64,000 nt of DNA from an archaeon (lineage in GTDB: Archaea; Nanobdellota; Nanobdellia; Pacearchaeales; JAPDKA01), in NCBI GenBank assembly GCA_029258825.1, contig JAPDKA010000001.1:35548-99547 (forward strand), read 5' to 3'. Positions within the stretch are counted from its first letter, which is position 1, and each line of letters begins with the position of its first letter. Both the position numbers and the translations under genes were made by a program. Of this stretch, positions 24,662-48,894 are shown piece after piece. The notes beneath the pieces are model-generated. The model saw only the letters and a program-made list of their open reading frames with translations, was not told where the DNA came from and made no database searches.

Positions 24662-26206
24662 TTACCCAAAATACTTCGCTTTTTCTTCTTCAAATTTGTC
24701 TTTTCCTGTAAAAAAAGAAAACCAAGGGTATGATGCAATAAATTTTTCTCGCAAATAGGAAGCAAGTTGGCGGATTTCCCATTGAGCATGTTTGTCGTAT
24801 CTCAAATTAAGAAAATGATAAAACTCGCGAAAATTCATCATGCAGTAAACACGTCTTTTGTGAGCATTAGTAAGCACATATGCTGCATTCCAATAACCGC
24901 GTTCTCGCTCGATTTTCCTGTACAACGCTGAAGACGATTCTATTATTTGAATATACCTTTTAGCCAGCTCTTCATTGTTTGCAATACTTTCAGGAATTAC
25001 AAACCCAAACTCTGGCATGTATTGTTGCGGTAATAATGTCATCATTCTATGTCTCTTTAGTTGCGCAAAACAAGAAGCACTCATCACAGCAGAAAATGAT
25101 ATTGATGCATTTTCGAATTCTCTAGGTAAATCGTGATATGATTGCATGTACTCAAGAATCGCTTTGATTAATTCTCGTTTTTGTGCTTCAGTTAAATTTT
25201 TTGCCAGTTCTAAACATATATTATAATCGCGCCGTGTATGATGGAACAAGAAAGCTGCAAAGATCGGTGCATCATCGTCTAGCTTCACATATTCAACTGT
25301 ACAAGTTCTGCTATTTTCAGCTTTAGCATGATTATTAACAGCAACCGATTCTGTTAGAGATTTGCATAATTCTTCTAACTTATTTTGTTTATAATATTCA
25401 TCCGCATTTGTATACTTAATAAGATGTTCGACATATGGAACTTTATAAACTACTTGTTTTAATTTTTCAGCTAAGGCTTTTGCTTCATTTAACTCATGCG
25501 AGGCAAGCTTCTGAATTATGTATTCTAATTCCCTGCCATTAACACTAAACTCAAGTTTTGTCAATGTAAAAAGTGGTAAAATAAAACGTGCGTCCTCTTT
25601 TGGTATACCTGCTCTAATAGCGTGATTATAAAAAGAGATTTGTTGATCACGCAAACCAGCAACATCAGCACAATCTTGTAATTCTGGTGGTATAGGCAAT
25701 TCTGCTGAGTTAACATCAACAAACCGTTGTGATTTTTCTGTATAGCTTGCTAAGCGATGTTTTTCGATTATTTCCATCAATAATCGTGTTCCTATAATGT
25801 CAACATTAAAGTACATATGTTCAACTATCGATTTGTGACCCATTCTAACAAGTTTTCGGTCAAGTTTAACCAATTCTTCTATATTATTCCTGTAATAATT
25901 CCGCAGTTGCTCGAAACTTTTCTTTTGATGACTAATACCAGCACATGCTGTAGCAATCACAGCAGGTGAAATCCTTGAAAGAAAACCTTCAAAACATGCA
26001 AGAGCTGCAGTTTTTCCTTGTTTATTTAAAGTATTATTTAAAGTATCAACAAATTGCGCGATTTCCTTGGAAAGTTGTTCAATATCAACATTGTAGCCAT
26101 AAAGATTTACATAAGGCAAATCTGCAGACTTGCCATCAAGCATAACTGAATAATCCTGCATAGAAAACTGCAACTCGAGAAATTTAAAAAGATTTTTATA
26201 TTGCAA
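24662..26206 (-). CDS. thyX: flavin-dependent thymidylate synthase ThyX-like, tandem Thy1 domains
   Basis: First half MGHKSIVEHMYFNVDIIGTRLLMEIIEKHRLASYTEKSQRFV matches the ThyX core (HxS..EH....RHR-x7-S-x-R). Second half has a degenerate repeat (FAQLKRHRMMTLLPQQYM) lacking the Ser/Arg. Confidence 0.55.
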   Translation of the reverse strand: MQYKNLFKFLELQFSMQDYSVMLDGKSADLPYVNLYGYNVDIEQLSKEIAQFVDTLNNTLNKQGKTAALACFEGFLSRISPAVIATACAGISHQKKSFEQLRNYYRNNIEELVKLDRKLVRMGHKSIVEHMYFNVDIIGTRLLMEIIEKHRLASYTEKSQRFVDVNSAELPIPPELQDCADVAGLRDQQISFYNHAIRAGIPKEDARFILPLFTLTKLEFSVNGRELEYIIQKLASHELNEAKALAEKLKQVVYKVPYVEHLIKYTNADEYYKQNKLEELCKSLTESVAVNNHAKAENSRTCTVEYVKLDDDAPIFAAFLFHHTRRDYNICLELAKNLTEAQKRELIKAILEYMQSYHDLPREFENASISFSAVMSASCFAQLKRHRMMTLLPQQYMPEFGFVIPESIANNEELAKRYIQIIESSSALYRKIERERGYWNAAYVLTNAHKRRVYCMMNFREFYHFLNLRYDKHAQWEIRQLASYLREKFIASYPWFSFFTGKDKFEEEKAKYFG

Positions 26207-33008: not shown

Positions 33009-33533
33009 CTAAGCATATATAAACGTTTCTCTTCTCGTTTTTACCCAAATCACAACCAATATCAAAACAGCAGTAACATTAAACAAATCGGCTAAATTAA
33101 AAGAAGGAAAAGCAAAATAGCAAAAACCAATAAAATCACGCACATAGTTAAATGCAAGCCTGTCAATGAGATTGCTTATTGTGCCAGCAAGTAGTAAACA
33201 TAATGCTAATACAAACAGATTAAATCTTGCTTGTTTTTTCACCTGCATGAAAATAAAAGCAAAACAAGCAAATATGACAGCAAGACTTATGGCTGTAACC
33301 AAAGCAAAGATAAACACATTGTTGATGTTAAGCAAACCAAAACTTACGCCATAGTTGAAAGCTTTCTTAAGACAGAAAAAACCAAGCTGTAATTGTTTAG
33401 CATTAATCGCAGCAAACTTGGTTAATTGATCAATAACAACCAATAAAGCAATAAACATAACAAGAAAGATAATATACATTGTTTTGCCCTCATGCAATTT
33501 CACTGCTTGTTTTGTCTTGTTTTGTTTTTTCAT
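33009..33533 (-). CDS. lspA: lipoprotein signal peptidase II (LspA)
   Basis: All LspA boxes present: DQLTK, NYGVSFG (NxGxAFG), SNLIDRL (GNxxDR), FNLADLF (FNxAD); 4 TM helices; 4-bp overlap with metG. Confidence 0.7.
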   Translation of the reverse strand: MKKQNKTKQAVKLHEGKTMYIIFLVMFIALLVVIDQLTKFAAINAKQLQLGFFCLKKAFNYGVSFGLLNINNVFIFALVTAISLAVIFACFAFIFMQVKKQARFNLFVLALCLLLAGTISNLIDRLAFNYVRDFIGFCYFAFPSFNLADLFNVTAVLILVVIWVKTRRETFIYA

Positions 33534-36225: not shown

Positions 36226-36370
36226 TAAGAATAGCTCGAAAAATTACATTTTAAAAATCTGTGTATTTGTTACCTTTATTAAATAGTAAATAGAAAAATT
36301 TATAAACGAGTGAGTTTTAGTAAAGTTAAACTAAAGGTGAAATTAGAAAAAGAAGCAACACCAAAGCAGA

Positions 36371-37288
36371 ATGGAACACCAAATCCAAATCATAGGAAAC
36401 AGAAAAGATGGAAGGTTGGATAGTCTAGTTAGGGAAGCATTAGATAGTGGTTTATTTAGAAGAGCATATGAAAGAGTGATGGGGATAAGAACAAAACAAA
36501 AAGCAAGAACAAAGCAAGAATCACAAAATATTGAAAAGAAGTTGATAAGTAGTGTTGATGATTTAAAGGAAATTGAGGGTGTTTGTGAACTTCAACCTGG
36601 AAAGTATAACATATATTTTGAAATTGAGATTCCTGAAGGAAGTAAGCTTATATTGCCGGCTGGTGTTGAGCTTTATTTTGCTGAAAATTGTGGCATAACA
36701 TGTGATGGAGAGCTTGAAGTGAAAGGAAAGAAAGGTTTAGAAGTTATAATTAGTGCTTTAGACAAAGACAAAGGATGGAAGAATATTGTGGTTGGAGAAA
36801 AAGGTAAGGCAAAGTTTAATTATGCTAAGGTTAGTTATGGTAGGGGAAGAAAAGATAAAGATGGTGATGTTAGTGGAGGGGCTGTCTCGGTTTATGGGGA
36901 ATTCTATGCTGATAATTCTGTGTTTGAGGAGAATAGTGCAAAATATGGTGGGGCAATAAGGAATTATAAAGGAAAAGTAGAGATAGGGGAGAATAATGTG
37001 TTTAGAGGGAATAGTGCAGAAAATAATGGTGGGGCAATAAGGAATTATAAAGGAAAAGTAGAGATAGGGGAGAATAATGTGTTTAGAGGGAATAGTGCAG
37101 AAAATAATGGTGGGGCAATAAGGAATTATGAAGGAAAAGTAGAGATAGGGGAGAATAATGTGTTTAGGGAGAATAGTGCAGAAAATGATGGTGGGGCAAT
37201 AAGGAATTATGAAGGTGAACTAAATATAGATAAAAGTAAAAACACATTTATAGGAAATAAACCAGATGATATTTATATTGGAGATTAA
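36371..37288 (+). CDS. repeat protein: conserved N-terminal module + Pmp-like (GGAI / FxxN) beta-helix repeats
   Basis: N-terminal 47 aa MEHQIQIIGNRKDGRLDSLVREALDSGLFRRAYERVMGIR nearly identical to the N-terminus of ORF 43408-44460. C-terminal three 27-aa repeats GGAIRNYKGKVEIGENNVFRGNSAENN carry the GGAI and FxxN motifs of polymorphic-membrane-protein type parallel beta-helices. Confidence 0.6.
   Translation: MEHQIQIIGNRKDGRLDSLVREALDSGLFRRAYERVMGIRTKQKARTKQESQNIEKKLISSVDDLKEIEGVCELQPGKYNIYFEIEIPEGSKLILPAGVELYFAENCGITCDGELEVKGKKGLEVIISALDKDKGWKNIVVGEKGKAKFNYAKVSYGRGRKDKDGDVSGGAVSVYGEFYADNSVFEENSAKYGGAIRNYKGKVEIGENNVFRGNSAENNGGAIRNYKGKVEIGENNVFRGNSAENNGGAIRNYEGKVEIGENNVFRENSAENDGGAIRNYEGELNIDKSKNTFIGNKPDDIYIGD
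36947..37189 (+). repeat. 3 x 81-bp near-identical tandem coding repeats
   Basis: ggtggggcaataaggaattataaaggaaaagtagagataggggagaataatgtgtttagagggaatagtgcagaaaataat repeated three times with 1-3 substitutions. Confidence 0.7.
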
Positions 37289-37358
37289 TTGTTAATACTA
37301 TTAAAACATTGTAGAAAGTCAATATTTCTGTTTTTAACATGTATAAACTATACATGTT

Positions 37359-37397
37359 CTGCAAAATATATGTTGCAGATTATGTATAGAATTACAT
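37359..37397 (+). repeat. ~40-nt intergenic repeat element, copy A, upstream of the MNT-HEPN cassette
   Basis: ctgcaaaatatatgttgcagattatgtatagaattacat; preceded at 37338-37356 by palindrome catgtataaactatacatg; related copies at 38394-38433 and 61698-61737. Confidence 0.4.
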
Positions 37398-37444
37398 TTT
37401 AAAAATGGAAAAATTTATAAACAATTGGAAGGAAATATTTACAT

Positions 37445-37978
37445 ATGGAAAAAAAATTAACCATACTAAAACCATTTTTCGAGAATCCAAATAGGGAATT
37501 TCACATAAGAGAGCTCTCTAGGATGCTCAAAATAAACCATACTACAGTAAGGCAATATCTTAACAAATTCGTGAAAGAAAATTTACTCGAAATGAAGAAG
37601 GAAAGAAAATTTAAATTATTTAAAGCGAAGATTAATAGAAAATTCTTAAACTTAAAATTATTTTATAATTTAGAAAAAATCAGAAAGAGTGGTTTGATAG
37701 AAGATTTAGAAAGAAATTTTGATTTTCCACCAATTGTAATTTTTGGTTCTTATGCTCAAGCTATGGACAACAAAAACAGCGATATTGATATATGTATCAT
37801 TACTAACATTAAGAAAAAATTTAATACAACAAAGTATGAAAAAAAGCTTAATAGAAAATTAAGCTTACATATTTTTTCTGAAAAAGAGTGGGAAAAATTA
37901 AAGGTTACAAATCCAGAATTGGTAAACAGCATTTGTAATGGGATTGTTTTAGCAGGACAGTTAGAAGTAGTAAAATGA
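37445..37978 (+). CDS. wHTH-fused nucleotidyltransferase (MNT)
   Basis: HIRELSRMLKINHTTVRQYLNKFV HTH + IVIFGSYAQAMDNKNSDIDICII GS...DxD motif; paralog of 20223-20789. Confidence 0.65.
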   Translation: MEKKLTILKPFFENPNREFHIRELSRMLKINHTTVRQYLNKFVKENLLEMKKERKFKLFKAKINRKFLNLKLFYNLEKIRKSGLIEDLERNFDFPPIVIFGSYAQAMDNKNSDIDICIITNIKKKFNTTKYEKKLNRKLSLHIFSEKEWEKLKVTNPELVNSICNGIVLAGQLEVVK

Positions 37979-37981
37979 ACT

Positions 37982-38278
37982 TTGAAGAAAGCCTTAAAAA
38001 AGAGTTATGTAAAAAAGGTTAAAAAAGATAAATTTAGAGCAAAAAGCTTGATTAAGTCTGCAGAATTAATTTTAAAGACAATTAAACAAATTCCATTGAA
38101 TAAAACAAGTGCAAATACAATCTTAAGAGAACTTTATGAAGCGCTAAGACAATGCTGCGAAGCTATAGGTTATTTATACAGGTATAAATTTTTATCACAT
38201 GAAGCAATAACTTACTTTATTTCGGATGTTCTTGAAGACAAAAGACTTGCTCTAAAGTTTGATAGATACAGAAAATAA
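37982..38278 (+). CDS. HEPN domain protein
   Basis: 98 aa helical; paralog of 19765-20226; starts 4 nt after the MNT stop. Confidence 0.55.
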   Translation: MKKALKKSYVKKVKKDKFRAKSLIKSAELILKTIKQIPLNKTSANTILRELYEALRQCCEAIGYLYRYKFLSHEAITYFISDVLEDKRLALKFDRYRK

Positions 38279-38393: not shown

Positions 38394-38433
38394 CTGTAAA
38401 ATATATGTTAGAGATTATGTATAAACTATACAT
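38394..38433 (+). repeat. ~40-nt intergenic repeat element, copy B, downstream of the MNT-HEPN cassette
   Basis: ctgtaaaatatatgttagagattatgtataaactatacat; ends in palindrome atgtataaactatacat (38417-38433); direct orientation relative to copy A. Confidence 0.4.
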
Positions 38434-38490
38434 CTTTATTAAGTTTACAGTACTGCATAACAAGAAAAAGTAAAGTAATGCTGTCGATGT

Positions 38491-41947: not shown

Positions 41948-43396
41948 ATGAAAATGGAAAAACAAAATAAAAACCTGGAAGAATTAACGTATGAAGAATT
42001 AATGTTGCCTGATGTACAATATTCCACAATAGCAGCAAGAATAGGTGATGTAGAACTCACTGTTTTAGATGTTATAGCTGCGGCTGTACTATCTGGAAGA
42101 TCTCTATTAATAGTTGGACATTCTGAAAAAGGAAAGTCATACATAGCAAGAATGATAAGAGATTATTGGTTCGGGGGAAGAGGCCATCTTATCCAAGCTG
42201 CATCACTTGATGACACCTCTGATCTGTTTACCCAAGTATTCAAGGAGTTAAGTAAAGAACAAGCTTCCGAAATTGTATTAGAAGAAAAACTTGCATATCC
42301 ATTCATTTTTGTCGATGAAGTTGGAGCGGTGCCAAAAGCTCTTCAGTCTCAATTTTGGCCAATTGGAGATGGAAAAATACCACATAAAGGGAAAGAGTAT
42401 TATCTTGGAATCCCAATAGAAGAAAAACAAAATATAAAAAGAAGATATCTATCCTATATAGCCTGTACCAATACAATAAGAGAGAGTGAAGATGGAGAAT
42501 ACAGCAATTTTGGCATTACTAAAGCAACGGCATCAAGATTCCATCTTTTATTAGACACAAGAAGAAAACTTAGAAGAAAAGAGGAGGACATTATAGATAT
42601 TATTATGTCAGATAATGTTGATGTAAGACATACAGAAACAATAGAAAAAAAAGACATAACACACAAAATAATTAATGCTCATAAAAAAATAATCAAGTTA
42701 GCTGAGAATACATCAATAGAAGAACGCATTGTTCTTGCATATTTAGGAATCGGAACTGGAAAATGTAAAAAAGGAGAAAAATATGAAGATGGGTGGCAAT
42801 TAAAATGTATGGATTGTAAAGAACAAGAAGACTGTCCTAATGCATATTTGTTTAATTATGAAATGTTAAGACAAGTAAAAAATATTAAAATATTTGCTAA
42901 TGCTTTATATTATGTGGCTTCCTTAAAAAGTAAAGGGGTAAATGGCCAAGTGGACCCTTATGATGCTGTTTTTGAGGCTGCAAAATTTGTTATAGCAGGA
43001 AAGTACTCTACAATGAATGAACTCTTGATGAGAGAAAAACAGTTACCGGATTATGATTTTGTTGAAAATGCGATAGACAAACTAAAACAAGAATTCAACA
43101 AAGTAAGGCCATTCATAGAAGTAAGCATTGAGGTGGCCGAAAAATATGGTGAGGTTGTAACTCAGTTTTATGAAGATAATAATAGAGTATATCCAATAAG
43201 CGAAAGATTCTTTGAAGAAGTAGGTAAGGCCAGAGGATTGAAAGGAGAAAAACTTCAATCCTACGTTAAAGAAATCTACAATGAAATTCAAAAAAGCAAC
43301 ATAATAGAGCCATACAATGATAATGGCTATGTCTCCCTATCTTGGTTCCCAAAACTACTTGAAAGATATATAACAAAATTAAAGCAAGAAAAATAA
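41948..43396 (+). CDS. MoxR-like AAA+ ATPase with C-terminal Cys-cluster extension
   Basis: Walker A LLIVGHSEKGKSYIARMI, Walker B FIFVDEVGAVP, sensor region ACTNTIRESEDGEYSNFGITKATASRFHLLLD (MoxR AT-NP...L-RF-like); C-terminal CKKGEKYEDGWQLKCMDCKEQEDCPNAY. Confidence 0.65.
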   Translation: MKMEKQNKNLEELTYEELMLPDVQYSTIAARIGDVELTVLDVIAAAVLSGRSLLIVGHSEKGKSYIARMIRDYWFGGRGHLIQAASLDDTSDLFTQVFKELSKEQASEIVLEEKLAYPFIFVDEVGAVPKALQSQFWPIGDGKIPHKGKEYYLGIPIEEKQNIKRRYLSYIACTNTIRESEDGEYSNFGITKATASRFHLLLDTRRKLRRKEEDIIDIIMSDNVDVRHTETIEKKDITHKIINAHKKIIKLAENTSIEERIVLAYLGIGTGKCKKGEKYEDGWQLKCMDCKEQEDCPNAYLFNYEMLRQVKNIKIFANALYYVASLKSKGVNGQVDPYDAVFEAAKFVIAGKYSTMNELLMREKQLPDYDFVENAIDKLKQEFNKVRPFIEVSIEVAEKYGEVVTQFYEDNNRVYPISERFFEEVGKARGLKGEKLQSYVKEIYNEIQKSNIIEPYNDNGYVSLSWFPKLLERYITKLKQEK

Positions 43397-43407
43397 ACAA
43401 AGCTAAA

Positions 43408-44460
43408 ATGGAAAACAAAATTTTGATTATAGGAAACAGAAAAGGTGGAAGGTTGGAGGGTTTAGTTAGGGAAGCATTAGATAGTGGTTTATTTAGAAGA
43501 GTATATGAAAAGGTGATGGGGATAAGGAGAGAGAAGAAACGGGAAGAAATAAAAAGCAAGCCAATTTCAAAATTAGAATCTGGACTGTATATTGGTGGAG
43601 ATTTTACTAAAGTTGGTCGTTTGAAATTGGATGATAGAGGTATTGTAAAGTATGAGAATGGTAGAATAGAGAAGGTTGTGGATGGGTTTGATTGGATTGA
43701 GCATTTCATTGAGAAGGATGGTGTGTTGTATATTGGTGGAGGTTTCACTAAGGTTGGTGGTTTGAAATTGAATGATAGAGGTATTGTAAAGTATGAGAAT
43801 GGTAGAATAGAGAAGGTTGTGGATGGGTTTAATGGTCGGATTAAGCATTTCATTGAGAAAGATGGTGTGTTGTATATAGGTGGAGGTTTTACTAAGGTTG
43901 ATGGTTTGAAATTGGATGGTTGTGGTATTGTAAAGTATGAGAATGGTAGAATAGAGAAGGTTGTGGATGGGTTTAATGATCGGATTATGCATTTCATTGA
44001 GAAAGATGGTGTGTTGTATATTGGTGGAGGTTTCACTAAGGTTGGTGGTTTGAAATTGGATGGTTGTGGTATTGTAAAGTATGAGAATGGTAGAATAGAG
44101 AAGGTTGTGGATGGGTTTAATGATTGGATTATGCATTTCATTGAGAAGGATGGTGTGTTGTATATAGGTGGAGGTTTTACTAAGGTTGATGGTTTGAAAT
44201 TGGATGGCAGAGGTATTGTAAAGTATGAGAATGGTAGAATAGAGAGGGTTGTGGATGGGTTTGATGATCGGATTAAGCATTTCATTGAGAAGGATGGTGT
44301 GTTGTATATTGGTGGAGGTTTTACTAAGGTTGATGGTTTGAAATTGGATGGCAGAGGTATTGTAAAGTATGAGAATGGTAGAATAGAGAGGGTTGTGGAT
44401 GGGTTTGATGATTGGATTAGGCATTTCATGGAAATTAAAAATAAAACAAAATTAGAATGA
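43408..44460 (+). CDS. repeat protein: conserved N-terminal module + six 47-aa Kelch-like (beta-propeller blade) repeats
   Basis: N-terminus MENKILIIGNRKGGRLEGLVREALDSGLFRRVYEKVMGIR shared with ORF 36371-37288. Six repeats LYIGGGFTKVxGLKLDxxGIVKYENGRIEKVVDGFxxxIxHFIEKDGV with a GG doublet and conserved Y/W/G spacing reminiscent of Kelch blades. Confidence 0.6.
   Translation: MENKILIIGNRKGGRLEGLVREALDSGLFRRVYEKVMGIRREKKREEIKSKPISKLESGLYIGGDFTKVGRLKLDDRGIVKYENGRIEKVVDGFDWIEHFIEKDGVLYIGGGFTKVGGLKLNDRGIVKYENGRIEKVVDGFNGRIKHFIEKDGVLYIGGGFTKVDGLKLDGCGIVKYENGRIEKVVDGFNDRIMHFIEKDGVLYIGGGFTKVGGLKLDGCGIVKYENGRIEKVVDGFNDWIMHFIEKDGVLYIGGGFTKVDGLKLDGRGIVKYENGRIERVVDGFDDRIKHFIEKDGVLYIGGGFTKVDGLKLDGRGIVKYENGRIERVVDGFDDWIRHFMEIKNKTKLE
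43585..44430 (+). repeat. 6 x 141-bp near-identical tandem repeats (coding)
   Basis: Period-141 repetition seen directly, e.g. ttgtatattggtggaggtttcactaaggttggtggtttgaaattg...gagaatggtagaatagagaaggttgtggatgggttt recurring at 43729, 43870, 44011, 44152 and 44293 with few substitutions; this also generates long spurious ORFs on the minus strand. Confidence 0.8.
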
Positions 44461-44502
44461 AACACTAAATTTAAATCATAGGAAAAAACAGATTTTCTCC
44501 TT

Positions 44503-47872: not shown

Positions 47873-48088
47873 ATGCTAATCAAAGTTAAAGTAAAACCCA
47901 ATGCAAAGCAAGATAAAATAGAAATAAGTAAGGATTGTATTATGGTTTATACAAAACAACCGGCAGAAAAAGGTAGAGCAAACGCTGCTGTAGTAAAATT
48001 AATTGCAAAACATTTTGGCGTTAGTACTTCATACGTGAAGATTGTCAAAGGAAAAACGTCAAGAGAAAAACTAGTAGAAGTAAAATGA
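47873..48088 (+). CDS. DUF167 (YggU-like) protein
   Basis: IKVKVKPNAKQDKIEI...AEKGRANAAVVKLIAKHFGVSTSYVKIVKGKTSREKLVEV follows the DUF167 pattern (v.P.ak...i......pp.dGkAN.al..fla..l.v....v.i..G.tsr.K.v.i). Confidence 0.6.
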   Translation: MLIKVKVKPNAKQDKIEISKDCIMVYTKQPAEKGRANAAVVKLIAKHFGVSTSYVKIVKGKTSREKLVEVK

Positions 48089-48540
48089 AAGTAAAAATAA
48101 AAAAACAAAATAGACAAAAACAAATAAAATATGAAATTGCTGACGATGTCAAACAACTTGTTCTAGACATTATTGAAGTCTTAAAGCTGAAACACATAGA
48201 TACTAACAGACTAGCATGCGTTAGAAGCAGAAACAGCAAAACAAAAAATACTATAGCAAGATGTCACGGTACTGCAAAAATACTGCAGATAGCATTCAAC
48301 ATAAAACCGCATTACGTTATTGAAGTGATCAGCGAAAAATTTGACAAGCTCGATAAGAGCGAAAAGATTAAAGTATTAATTCATGAACTAATGCACATTC
48401 CGAAAAATTTTGGAGGGGGCTTCAGGCATCATGACTTTGTGAATGATAATCTCGTCGAGAAATTGTACGCAAGATACGTTAACGCTAAATACATGAAGGA
48501 AAAATATGGTTTAGTCGTCGAAAAAACGAAAGATATTTAA
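48085..48540 (+). CDS. putative zinc metallopeptidase (HExxH; SprT/Wss1-like)
   Basis: IHELMHIPKNFGGGFRHHDF contains HELMH (HExxH) plus downstream His; N-terminal basic region; 151 aa; 4-bp overlap with DUF167. Confidence 0.4.
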   Translation: MKVKIKKQNRQKQIKYEIADDVKQLVLDIIEVLKLKHIDTNRLACVRSRNSKTKNTIARCHGTAKILQIAFNIKPHYVIEVISEKFDKLDKSEKIKVLIHELMHIPKNFGGGFRHHDFVNDNLVEKLYARYVNAKYMKEKYGLVVEKTKDI

Positions 48541-48588
48541 ACTTACGAGCATGTGTATTTTCAACTAAATCAAATAAAAGAGGTAAAA

Positions 48589-48894
48589 ATGGGAACTGTA
48601 ATTTTGAAGAAAGCTGTTAAAAGAGAAAAAGGTTACTTGTACTATGTTGATGCGAAGGGTAATGTTTGTATGGCACCGATGGCAAGAGGAAAAAAGAAAG
48701 CAAAGGGAAAAGCAAAGGTATTGGTGAAAAATGCAGTGAAAAGAAAACCAGGTTACTTGTACTATGTTGATGCGAAGGGTAATGTTTGTATGGCAAAAAT
48801 GGCTCGCGGTGGTAAGAAGAAAAAGAAAAAGGCAAAGAAAGCGAAAAAGACAAAAGCAAAGAAAGCAAAGGCAAAGAAAAAGAAAAGAAGATAA
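48589..48894 (+). CDS. small basic protein with internal 40-aa duplication and poly-Lys tail (putative nucleic-acid binding)
   Basis: KAVKREKGYLYYVDAKGNVCMAPMARG / NAVKRKPGYLYYVDAKGNVCMAKMARG repeat, then a KKKKKKAKKAKKTKAKKAKAKKKK tail; RBS aagagg 6 nt upstream of ATG 48589. Confidence 0.45.
   Translation: MGTVILKKAVKREKGYLYYVDAKGNVCMAPMARGKKKAKGKAKVLVKNAVKRKPGYLYYVDAKGNVCMAKMARGGKKKKKKAKKAKKTKAKKAKAKKKKRR

Follow-up and report, generated by a model that had tools for sequence, protein, structure and literature searches.

The 64,000-nucleotide (nt) stretch of DNA analyzed here, hereafter the window, covers positions 35,548-99,547 of the forward strand of contig JAPDKA010000001.1 (assembly GCA_029258825.1) from an archaeon of the Pacearchaeales (JAPDKA01). 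It is a low-GC (~32%) stretch of chromosome with housekeeping genes, including those for SMC, CDC48, an STT3-like oligosaccharyl transferase, archaeal DnaG, Kae1, MetRS, Dph2, SepF, prefoldin, L37ae, L11, S2 and RadB, and with seven tRNA genes. Two open reading frames (ORFs), A and B, located on the same strand with starts 7037 nt apart, code for repeat proteins with unrelated bodies, and both begin with the same 40-codon segment, referred to here as the head (copies winA and winB). Gene B is the last of three genes in a row, following a gene for a 652-amino acid (aa) protein, likely VWA-like, and a gene for a MoxR-like AAA+ ATPase, and starts 12 nt past the ATPase stop codon. The head marks a small, undescribed and lineage-restricted family of archaeal proteins without signal peptide.

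Over codons 1-40, identity between the two heads amounts to 87.5% in DNA, with 15 of 120 nt differing, and to 80% in protein. In an ungapped comparison, scored per 20 nt, identity is at the background level of 5-45% upstream of both ATGs, rises to 70-100% between 36371-36490 and 43408-43527, and falls to 25-45% beyond codon 40. The similarity begins precisely at the ATG, in two unrelated upstream contexts, and ends at codon 40. The initial annotation had described a near-identical 5' module of 47 codons (140 nt); the module is indeed present in both ORFs, with an extent of 40 codons (120 nt). It includes a perfect run of 39 nt (36426-36464 = 43463-43501), and a repeat finder aligns the pair at 85% over 133 nt. 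A 40-nt probe detected exactly two sites in the window (0 matches in 100 shuffles), and tblastn with either head gave no additional intact copy within the window. A third, degenerate head start, which the initial annotation did not include, was detected at the end of gene B. A 23-nt head-start probe matches there at 44463-44485 with 3 mismatches against 0 expected, both Gln codons are now TAA, and an intact counterpart exists at the same position in L007 (L numbers denote metagenome contigs or loci related to the window, P numbers related proteins from the protein collection). The fragment seems to be what remains of a head-bearing gene downstream. The features of the locus are listed in the table.

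Table. Positions of the head-bearing genes, their parts and the associated features in the window.
Feature	Position	Strand	Description
ORF A	36371-37288	+	305 aa; head, linker and beta-helix with PMP repeats
Head copy A	36371..36490	+	Codons 1-40 of ORF A, MEHQIQIIGNRKDGRLDSLVREALDSGLFRRAYERVMGIR; window-type (T1) head HMM, 92.8 bits
Linker of protein A	36491..36535	+	Charged, K/Q/E-rich; not alignable to the linker of protein B
Body A	36536..37288	+	Right-handed beta-helix, PMP/POMP repeats (GGAI, FxxN)
ORF B	43408-44460	+	350 aa; head, linker and propeller-blade repeats
Head copy B	43408..43527	+	Codons 1-40 of ORF B, MENKILIIGNRKGGRLEGLVREALDSGLFRRVYEKVMGIR; T1 head HMM, 84.6 bits
Linker of protein B	43528..43585	+	Charged
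Body B	43586..44460	+	5.9 tandem propeller-blade-like repeats of 144 nt (48 aa), 94% alike
Third, degenerate head start	44457..44491	+	35-nt fragment ATGAAACACTAAATTTAAATCATAGGAAAAAACAG; start ATG and the gene B stop TGA overlap (ATGA)
Probable VWA-like protein, 652 aa	39896..41854	+	N-terminal HExxH region, acidic linker, C-terminal VWA-like domain
MoxR-like AAA+ ATPase, 482 aa	41948..43396	+	Walker A GHSEKGKS, Walker B FVDE, four invariant Cys
TATA-like element	36288..36312	+	AAATAGAAAAATTTATAAACGAGTG, ~60-80 nt ahead of gene A; this upstream sequence also stands before the chimeric gene of L007

The head is composed of a short motif that lies within eight residues from the N-terminus, I-I-G-[ND]-x(1,2)-K-x(1,2)-[RK]-[LI]-[DE], and two predicted short amphipathic helices, and is followed by a flexible charged linker (12-15 K/E/Q-rich codons, similar in composition in A and B). 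A six-frame search of the window and of all loci with the motif as a regular expression matched head N-termini only. No hydrophobic run in the head exceeds ILIIG, its other parts being charged or amphipathic, in agreement with the initial statement that the module is neither a signal peptide nor a transmembrane anchor; Sec, Tat and class III signal peptides were rejected as candidates on the same grounds, with no h-region present. A model of protein A predicted with AlphaFold2 (AF2) from a 21-sequence alignment shows a confident parallel beta-helix at residues 54-305, with a predicted local distance difference test score (pLDDT) >90. For residues 1-53 the pLDDT is <50, with coil and helices at 15-25 and 28-40; head residues 1-14 are unstructured and the head is not packed on the beta-helix body, a prediction that is consistent with a tethered binding element. 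A ribbon-helix-helix domain, suggested by the pattern of a strand and two helices, was also considered and rejected, based on the low confidence of the model, on the unstructured residues 1-14 and on the lack of any match to a family of this type at E values up to 10. As a separate observation, CAAATCCAAATCATAGGAAA (36380-36399, codons for QIQIIGN) is near-invariant, including synonymous sites, at orthologous positions in L005, L009 and L010, despite ATC being a minor codon in this AT-rich genome; the sites concerned are few.

The bodies downstream from the heads are unrelated, as the initial annotation had stated. Body A was identified as Chlam_PMP (PF02415, E 3.8e-10, 39.4 bits against a cut-off of 20.6) and TIGR01376 (52.4 bits, cut-off 15), in support of the original PMP-like label. 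Its tandem unit of 81 nt is repeated 3.7 times at 36919-37215 (95% alike), and Foldseek with the body A model returned generic beta-helix proteins. Protein A, P0079 in the protein collection, lacks a hydrophobic N-terminus and ends after the last repeat, indicating neither a signal peptide nor an autotransporter barrel. In L008, a second assembly of the same strain (flanks 99.8% identical), gene A is shorter by one 81-nt unit (278 versus 305 aa), either a true repeat-number polymorphism or an assembly collapse. The original Kelch-like label of body B was not retained, since the Pfam scan gave no Kelch family; the matches were to Reg_prop (23.3 bits) and Rax2, and to DUF5122 (and Rax2) on the relative P0011. 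Across the family, the bodies range from 1 to 6 blades and from about 1 to 7 PMP units. Two side observations concern gene B. Protein B matches, via its blade repeats, the viral family phrog_5490 of unknown function (E 1.2e-29). A 399-aa antisense ORF (43266-44465, minus strand), longer than gene B itself, crosses the tandem repeats; it probably arises as an artefact from the composition of the repeats, by which gene callers could be misled.

The two genes preceding gene B were analyzed by family profiles. The orthologues P0004 and P0005 of the ATPase carry AAA_5 (PF07728; P0004, 33.6 bits, cut-off 22), the family profile matches the MoxR structure 2r44 (E 1e-4), and the score of the window ATPase itself is under the Pfam thresholds. 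The ATPase family has four invariant cysteines (C273, C287, C290 and C296), and the L012 orthologue gave a weak Zn_ribbon_6 match, which suggests a zinc-ribbon insert after the AAA domain. In the 652-aa protein, the VWA-like motifs are DxSxS (464-468), G-x-T (546-548) and SDG (570-572). All three are invariant and arranged in the order of a VWA metal ion-dependent adhesion site (MIDAS), and HExxH is invariant in three divergent orthologues. By hhalign, the G-x-T loop was placed on the loop of E. coli ViaA (weak, P 0.002) and the DxSxS strand on the strand of YehP (weak, P 0.028). The protein gave no match in Pfam, PADLOC, PHROGs or a PDB sequence search, and AF2 from the single sequence reached a pLDDT of 35. 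The protein is likely VWA-like.

The relatives of the head in other genomes were located by an exhaustive HMMER search of 1.84 billion representative proteins and by synteny. The HMMER search gave four true relatives only, each with the head at residue 1: P0007 (gene A minus one repeat unit), P0008 (a B-type protein), and the diverged B-type proteins P0009 (one blade) and P0011 (two blades). By synteny, L009 was found to contain a VWA-like gene, the ATPase gene and then head plus beta-helix; L010 and L006, the ATPase gene and then head plus two-blade propeller; L005 (from sample ERZ23486261), two B-type genes in tandem; and L003, a VWA-like gene and an ATPase 68% identical to that of the window, followed by a 36-codon degenerate head (MENNIRIDDLFESDFFRRVYEE...) with no body. 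In addition, a full-length search with protein A gave ~20 beta-helix homologues of 40-49% identity, all with a diverged head (TNIIGDTCKDRRIDY...), here referred to as T2 as opposed to the window-type T1. The T2 head reads M-x-Q-T-N-I-I-G-D-T-C-K-D-R-R-I-D-Y-x-L-I-D-R-I-N-x-Q-Y-E and continues into a long K/E linker. These homologues are arranged in ATGA-coupled arrays of 3-5 genes, after the ATPase in L012 and after the VWA-like gene in L013 (two contigs). In the full-length alignment of 21 sequences, I8, K12 and D17 are invariant; the residue of protein B that corresponds to D17 is E17.

Taken together, the head occurs on >25 proteins from several genomes, without exception at the very N-terminus and with a charged linker after it. 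Its gene almost always comes directly after that of the ATPase: it starts 7-13 nt past the ATPase stop, or overlaps it, in the window, L009, L010/L006 and L012, and a remnant stands there in L003. An adjacent VWA-like gene is present in the window, L003/L004, L009 and L013. Further copies in related genomes, for which the initial annotation had proposed a search, therefore exist, and the head is not a known domain as far as the databases go: no match was found in Pfam (even at E 10), NCBIfam, PADLOC, PHROGs or Rfam, and a literature search gave no description of it. A word-indexed protein search with the 51-aa head also gave nothing; judging from the relatives that the exhaustive search retrieved, this tool appears to lack sensitivity for such short queries. 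Scans of the GTDB species representatives with degenerate DNA and peptide patterns were negative, the source genome being absent from these representatives. Of two pattern scans of JGI metagenomes, the first gave nothing and the second only L010 again. The IMG/VR scans were empty, indicating no sign of viral origin.

Selection on the head was estimated by the Nei-Gojobori method over the 40 head codons. The dN/dS ratio is 0.2-0.4 for nearly all head pairs (0.24 for the window pair), indicating purifying selection at the protein level. For dS, the window pair gives 0.37 and comparisons of the window with other lineages give 0.65-1.2. Head protein identity is 80% for winA-winB and 75% for L009 (A)-L010 (B), both pairs being within a lineage, as compared with 69% for winA-L009 and 56% for winB-L010, which share the same body across lineages; for the A bodies themselves, identity is 80% in window versus L009. 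The heads cluster by lineage, not by body type. Furthermore, the ATPases P0004 and P0005 are 90% identical, and one is followed by head plus propeller while the other is followed by head plus beta-helix, showing the exchange of bodies in one genomic slot. Together with head-only remnants and the mosaic head described below, this bears out the cassette-like family, with a conserved head on variable bodies, that the initial annotation had proposed. The operon itself is a mosaic between the window and L009, with 83% identity for the VWA-like protein and 45% for the ATPase (75% over the C-terminal 100 aa and 20-30% in the middle). The idea that the head type co-varies with the ATPase type was dropped, since the ATPase is itself mosaic and adjacency alone could account for it.

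A mosaic head is found in L007, a 606-nt contig from another strain (sample ERZ27227317), in which the upstream region of gene A precedes a head made of alternating A and B segments (A|B|A|B, at least 3 switches). This mosaic head continues into the linker and body of B, and then a new head start, overlapping the stop and identical to window 36380-36402. The tandem arrays vary most in the linker, and few of their segments are as well conserved as the first 120 nt. Clustering of the heads by lineage, the mosaic head and the remnants are, as a whole, signs that the heads evolve in concert and are sites of recombination. The recent gene conversion put forward in the initial annotation has modest support in the window pair: its dS is under the between-lineage values and not near zero, and the 39-nt run gives P ~0.03 over all sites and 0.18 over third positions, so that the evidence for a very recent conversion tract is modest. 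Between the two window heads, which are direct repeats, are the genes for SepF, prefoldin, L37ae and tRNA-Pro. A crossover joining the two heads would probably kill the cell, and conversion instead of deletion is the likely mode here. A shufflon or invertible cassette was rejected, the head copies being in direct orientation amid housekeeping genes and no recombinase or integrase being detected in the window scans. Short-read assemblies of the window strain break within the 39-nt repeat (L002 ends at 43492) or within the tandem repeats (L001).

Based on these observations, we propose that the head is the conserved N-terminal module of variable partner proteins captured by the MoxR-type ATPase/VWA pair, and that it serves also as a homology patch for the shuffling of bodies, a reading to which we assign an even chance. 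The initial annotation had suggested an assembly or targeting tag in general terms; the constant association with the MoxR-type ATPase and the VWA-like protein, not included there, allows a more specific reading. The head would be the handle by which the ATPase/VWA pair captures the repeat proteins, and the bodies, whether beta-helix or propeller, would be exchangeable and evolve fast, as cargo or as sensors. Ligands are bound at a MIDAS site through an acidic side chain. The invariant acidic residue of the head may bind the MIDAS metal, or else the ATPase may engage the free N-terminus; the head [RK]-[LI]-[DE] resembles the integrin-type ligand motifs LDV and IDS, a likeness that serves as a lead. 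At the DNA level, the common first 120 nt would be the homology patch through which gene conversion keeps the heads of one genome alike, and unequal or ectopic recombination at the heads would add, delete or swap bodies; such conversion or recombination would account for the DNA-level identity in the window. MoxR ATPases characteristically pair with VWA co-chaperones, and the vWA protein has been proposed to capture a peptide of its substrate (Kaur, Burroughs, Iyer, Aravind 2020, eLife; PMC7159879). In addition, the Rea1 MIDAS domain binds the N-terminal domains of two different beta-propeller proteins via an acidic residue (PMC6624252).

A number of points weigh against this proposal. The window-type head was sampled from about 4 lineages, mainly on contigs of 0.6-8 kb, and the 606-nt contig L007 could be chimeric. 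The two head types are weakly linked, with no cross-match by HMMER and an hhalign P of 0.018 over the first 16 residues, so that their homology is argued, weakly, mainly from position and context. The VWA assignment draws on motifs and weak hhalign matches. In L010/L006 (1-165), the gene upstream of the ATPase codes for a small unrelated protein that is not VWA-like, so that the VWA partner is not adjacent in every case. Gene A lies 2.6 kb upstream of the ATPase operon and has its own promoter-like element, and linkage alone could account for heads going with ATPases. The head-body proteins stand as candidate partners of the ATPase/VWA pair, as judged from sequence.

The absence of a signal peptide on proteins with these bodies, whose kinds are in most cases extracellular, raises another interpretation, that the head is a non-classical signal for export or surface targeting in place of the signal peptide, with the ATPase/VWA pair as an export or assembly chaperone. 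Distant PMP-repeat homologues mostly have classical signal peptides while the head-bearing clade never does, beta-helices and DUF5122-type propellers are typical of secreted adhesins, and a MoxR/VWA pair, p618/p892, is reportedly implicated in the extracellular tail growth of an archaeal virus. The head, however, contains no hydrophobic or twin-arginine segment, none of the operons includes a membrane, secretin or transporter gene, and we know of no archaeal export route with such a tag. Accordingly, the secretion signal considered in the initial annotation is not supported, as neither a hydrophobic region nor nearby membrane or secretion genes were found, and we regard export in the wider sense as unlikely.

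The two predicted amphipathic helices could instead form a hairpin for self-association, by which the bodies would oligomerize, the link to the ATPase being only indirect. B-type relatives with 1-2 blades are unable to form a propeller alone and need partners to close the ring, as expected for such an element. The best-conserved part of the head is, however, the non-helical IIGN-K-R-L-D motif, and the helices differ completely between the two head types; moreover, beta-helix bodies need no oligomerization, and the constant adjacency of the ATPase is left without explanation. The chance of this alternative is equally small.

In a variant of the capture proposal, the HExxH domain of the VWA-like protein would act on the head as its recognition site or as a propeptide, and cleavage in the linker would free the mature body. 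The conservation of HExxH in the three orthologues and the exposed low-complexity linker of variable length after the head are in its favor, whereas the HExxH region gave no peptidase family match in Pfam scans, no third zinc ligand was identified, and L010/L006 have no HExxH/VWA-like gene beside the ATPase. We rate this variant as slightly less probable again.

It is rather improbable that the head is a functionless by-product of a recent partial duplication or conversion of the first 120 nt. The few differences between the window copies and their sharp boundaries would fit, but the head is conserved across lineages with near-saturated synonymous sites under the dN/dS ratios given above, it is carried by many proteins in several genomes, and the onset of similarity exactly at the ATG in two unrelated contexts is against such an origin, which is disfavored. 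Least probable of all is an element acting as RNA or DNA (a 5' coding structure, translational control or a recombinase site): the near-invariance of CAAATCCAAATCATAGGAAA speaks for it, but the RNAalifold consensus is -1.9 kcal/mol with almost no covariation, the single-sequence z-scores are +0.27 and -0.73, Rfam gave only the tRNAs in the window and no match for the head, no recombinase gene is nearby, and the substitution patterns fit protein-level selection.

The capture proposal was compared with known systems. The body A repeats, GGA[ILV] and FxxN in a parallel beta-helix, are shared with chlamydial Pmp/POMP proteins, from which protein A (305 aa) differs by the absence of signal peptide and autotransporter barrel and by a head unrelated to Pmp proteins. 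Encapsulation peptides of bacterial microcompartments are likewise N-terminal targeting tags on unrelated proteins, with a short amphipathic helix and a poorly conserved linker; the head differs in that no shell genes are present, its most conserved part is non-helical, and it occurs in an archaeon. Among the described kinds, the nearest is the MoxR-vWA ternary system (PMC7159879), in which a MoxR-type ATPase, a vWA-like co-chaperone gene (the VWA being probable in our case) and one or more variable components are likewise encoded side by side, the variable parts being displaced between close relatives and present in multiple paralogous versions; capture of a peptide by vWA is proposed in both. 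In place of a multicellular bacterium, the host in our case is an archaeon with a small, low-GC genome region, the role of third component falls not to an enzymatic effector but to repeat proteins of 110-370 aa that carry a novel head of 40 aa, and the vWA-like protein has an N-terminal HExxH region in place of C-terminal effectors. None of the described types of third component (VMAP-C, iSTAND, FtsH, or a propeller fused to the vWA) is represented: the third genes of the window gave no VMAP, STAND or FtsH match in Pfam, NCBIfam and PADLOC scans, and the propeller is encoded by a separate gene. Rea1/Midasin, with the ubiquitin-like (UBL) MIDO domains of Rsa4 and Ytm1 (PMC6624252), has in common with the window an AAA_5-type ATPase, a MIDAS domain (a candidate here) and an N-terminal tag with an essential or invariant acidic residue on propeller proteins, a likeness that is functional only. 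In contrast to UBL, the head is a short motif plus two helices (AF2, low confidence), and the ATPase and the MIDAS are on separate small proteins and unconnected with ribosome biogenesis. In prokaryotic conflict systems, effector-associated domains (EADs) and Death-like adaptors (PMC7159879, PMC8195603) are also short, non-enzymatic N-terminal modules on unrelated neighboring proteins; EADs are located on both core and effector, where homotypic pairing is possible, while the head is located on repeat proteins only. In agreement with this difference, the head HMMs and the motif regular expression gave no match on the ATPase or the VWA-like protein.

Several other observations were made in the window. 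A near copy of the TATA-like element of gene A, AAAT[AG]GAAAAATTTATAAAC, is located at 37403-37427 before the next gene, and the element probably represents a shared archaeal promoter type. Near-identical direct repeats of ~45 nt, at 37339-37388 and 38394-38436, with the palindrome ATGTATA-AAC-TATACAT, flank a unit of ~1 kb that contains a helix-turn-helix plus nucleotidyltransferase protein (MntA-like, 37445-37978) and a 98-aa ORF (37982-38278). This unit is possibly a toxin-antitoxin cassette that was inserted here; alternatively, the repeats could represent shared terminators. A signal peptidase II gene (33009-33533, minus strand; Peptidase_A8, E 1e-22) adjoins MetRS in this archaeal genome. 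The 514-aa ORF at 24662-26206 (minus strand) has a ThyX match limited to residues 335-496, either with a miscalled start or with a long N-terminal part without family. At 48085-48894, a protein with the 'putative phage metallopeptidase' domain (PF18894, E 7e-25) is encoded, and the small ORF after it contains 120-nt and short AAGAAA-type tandem repeats.

For most MoxR AAA+ ATPases with their VWA partners, neither the substrates nor the mode of recognition are, to our knowledge, established. A tag with three invariant residues, carried by neighbors of an ATPase/VWA pair whatever their fold, is a testable candidate for such a recognition element. A more far-reaching version of the proposal, which we put forward tentatively and consider doubtful, is that the head is a portable tag for a MoxR/HExxH-VWA machine, by which proteins would be captured at the MIDAS through the invariant acidic residue and then remodelled or processed by the ATPase, the same 120 nt being the recombination handle for shuffling, duplicating and deleting the repeat cargo. 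If true, this would be the first sequence-defined substrate tag for a MoxR/VWA pair, and the genes would form a combinatorial cassette system for fast-evolving binding proteins, possibly in conflict between host and symbiont or with viruses. Since short-read assemblies break at the head copies and at the internal repeats, the family is likely under-represented or mis-assembled in metagenomes. The locus also provides a case of natural domain shuffling in an uncultured archaeal lineage, in which unrelated repeat bodies are exchanged in one slot behind a constant region of 120 nt.

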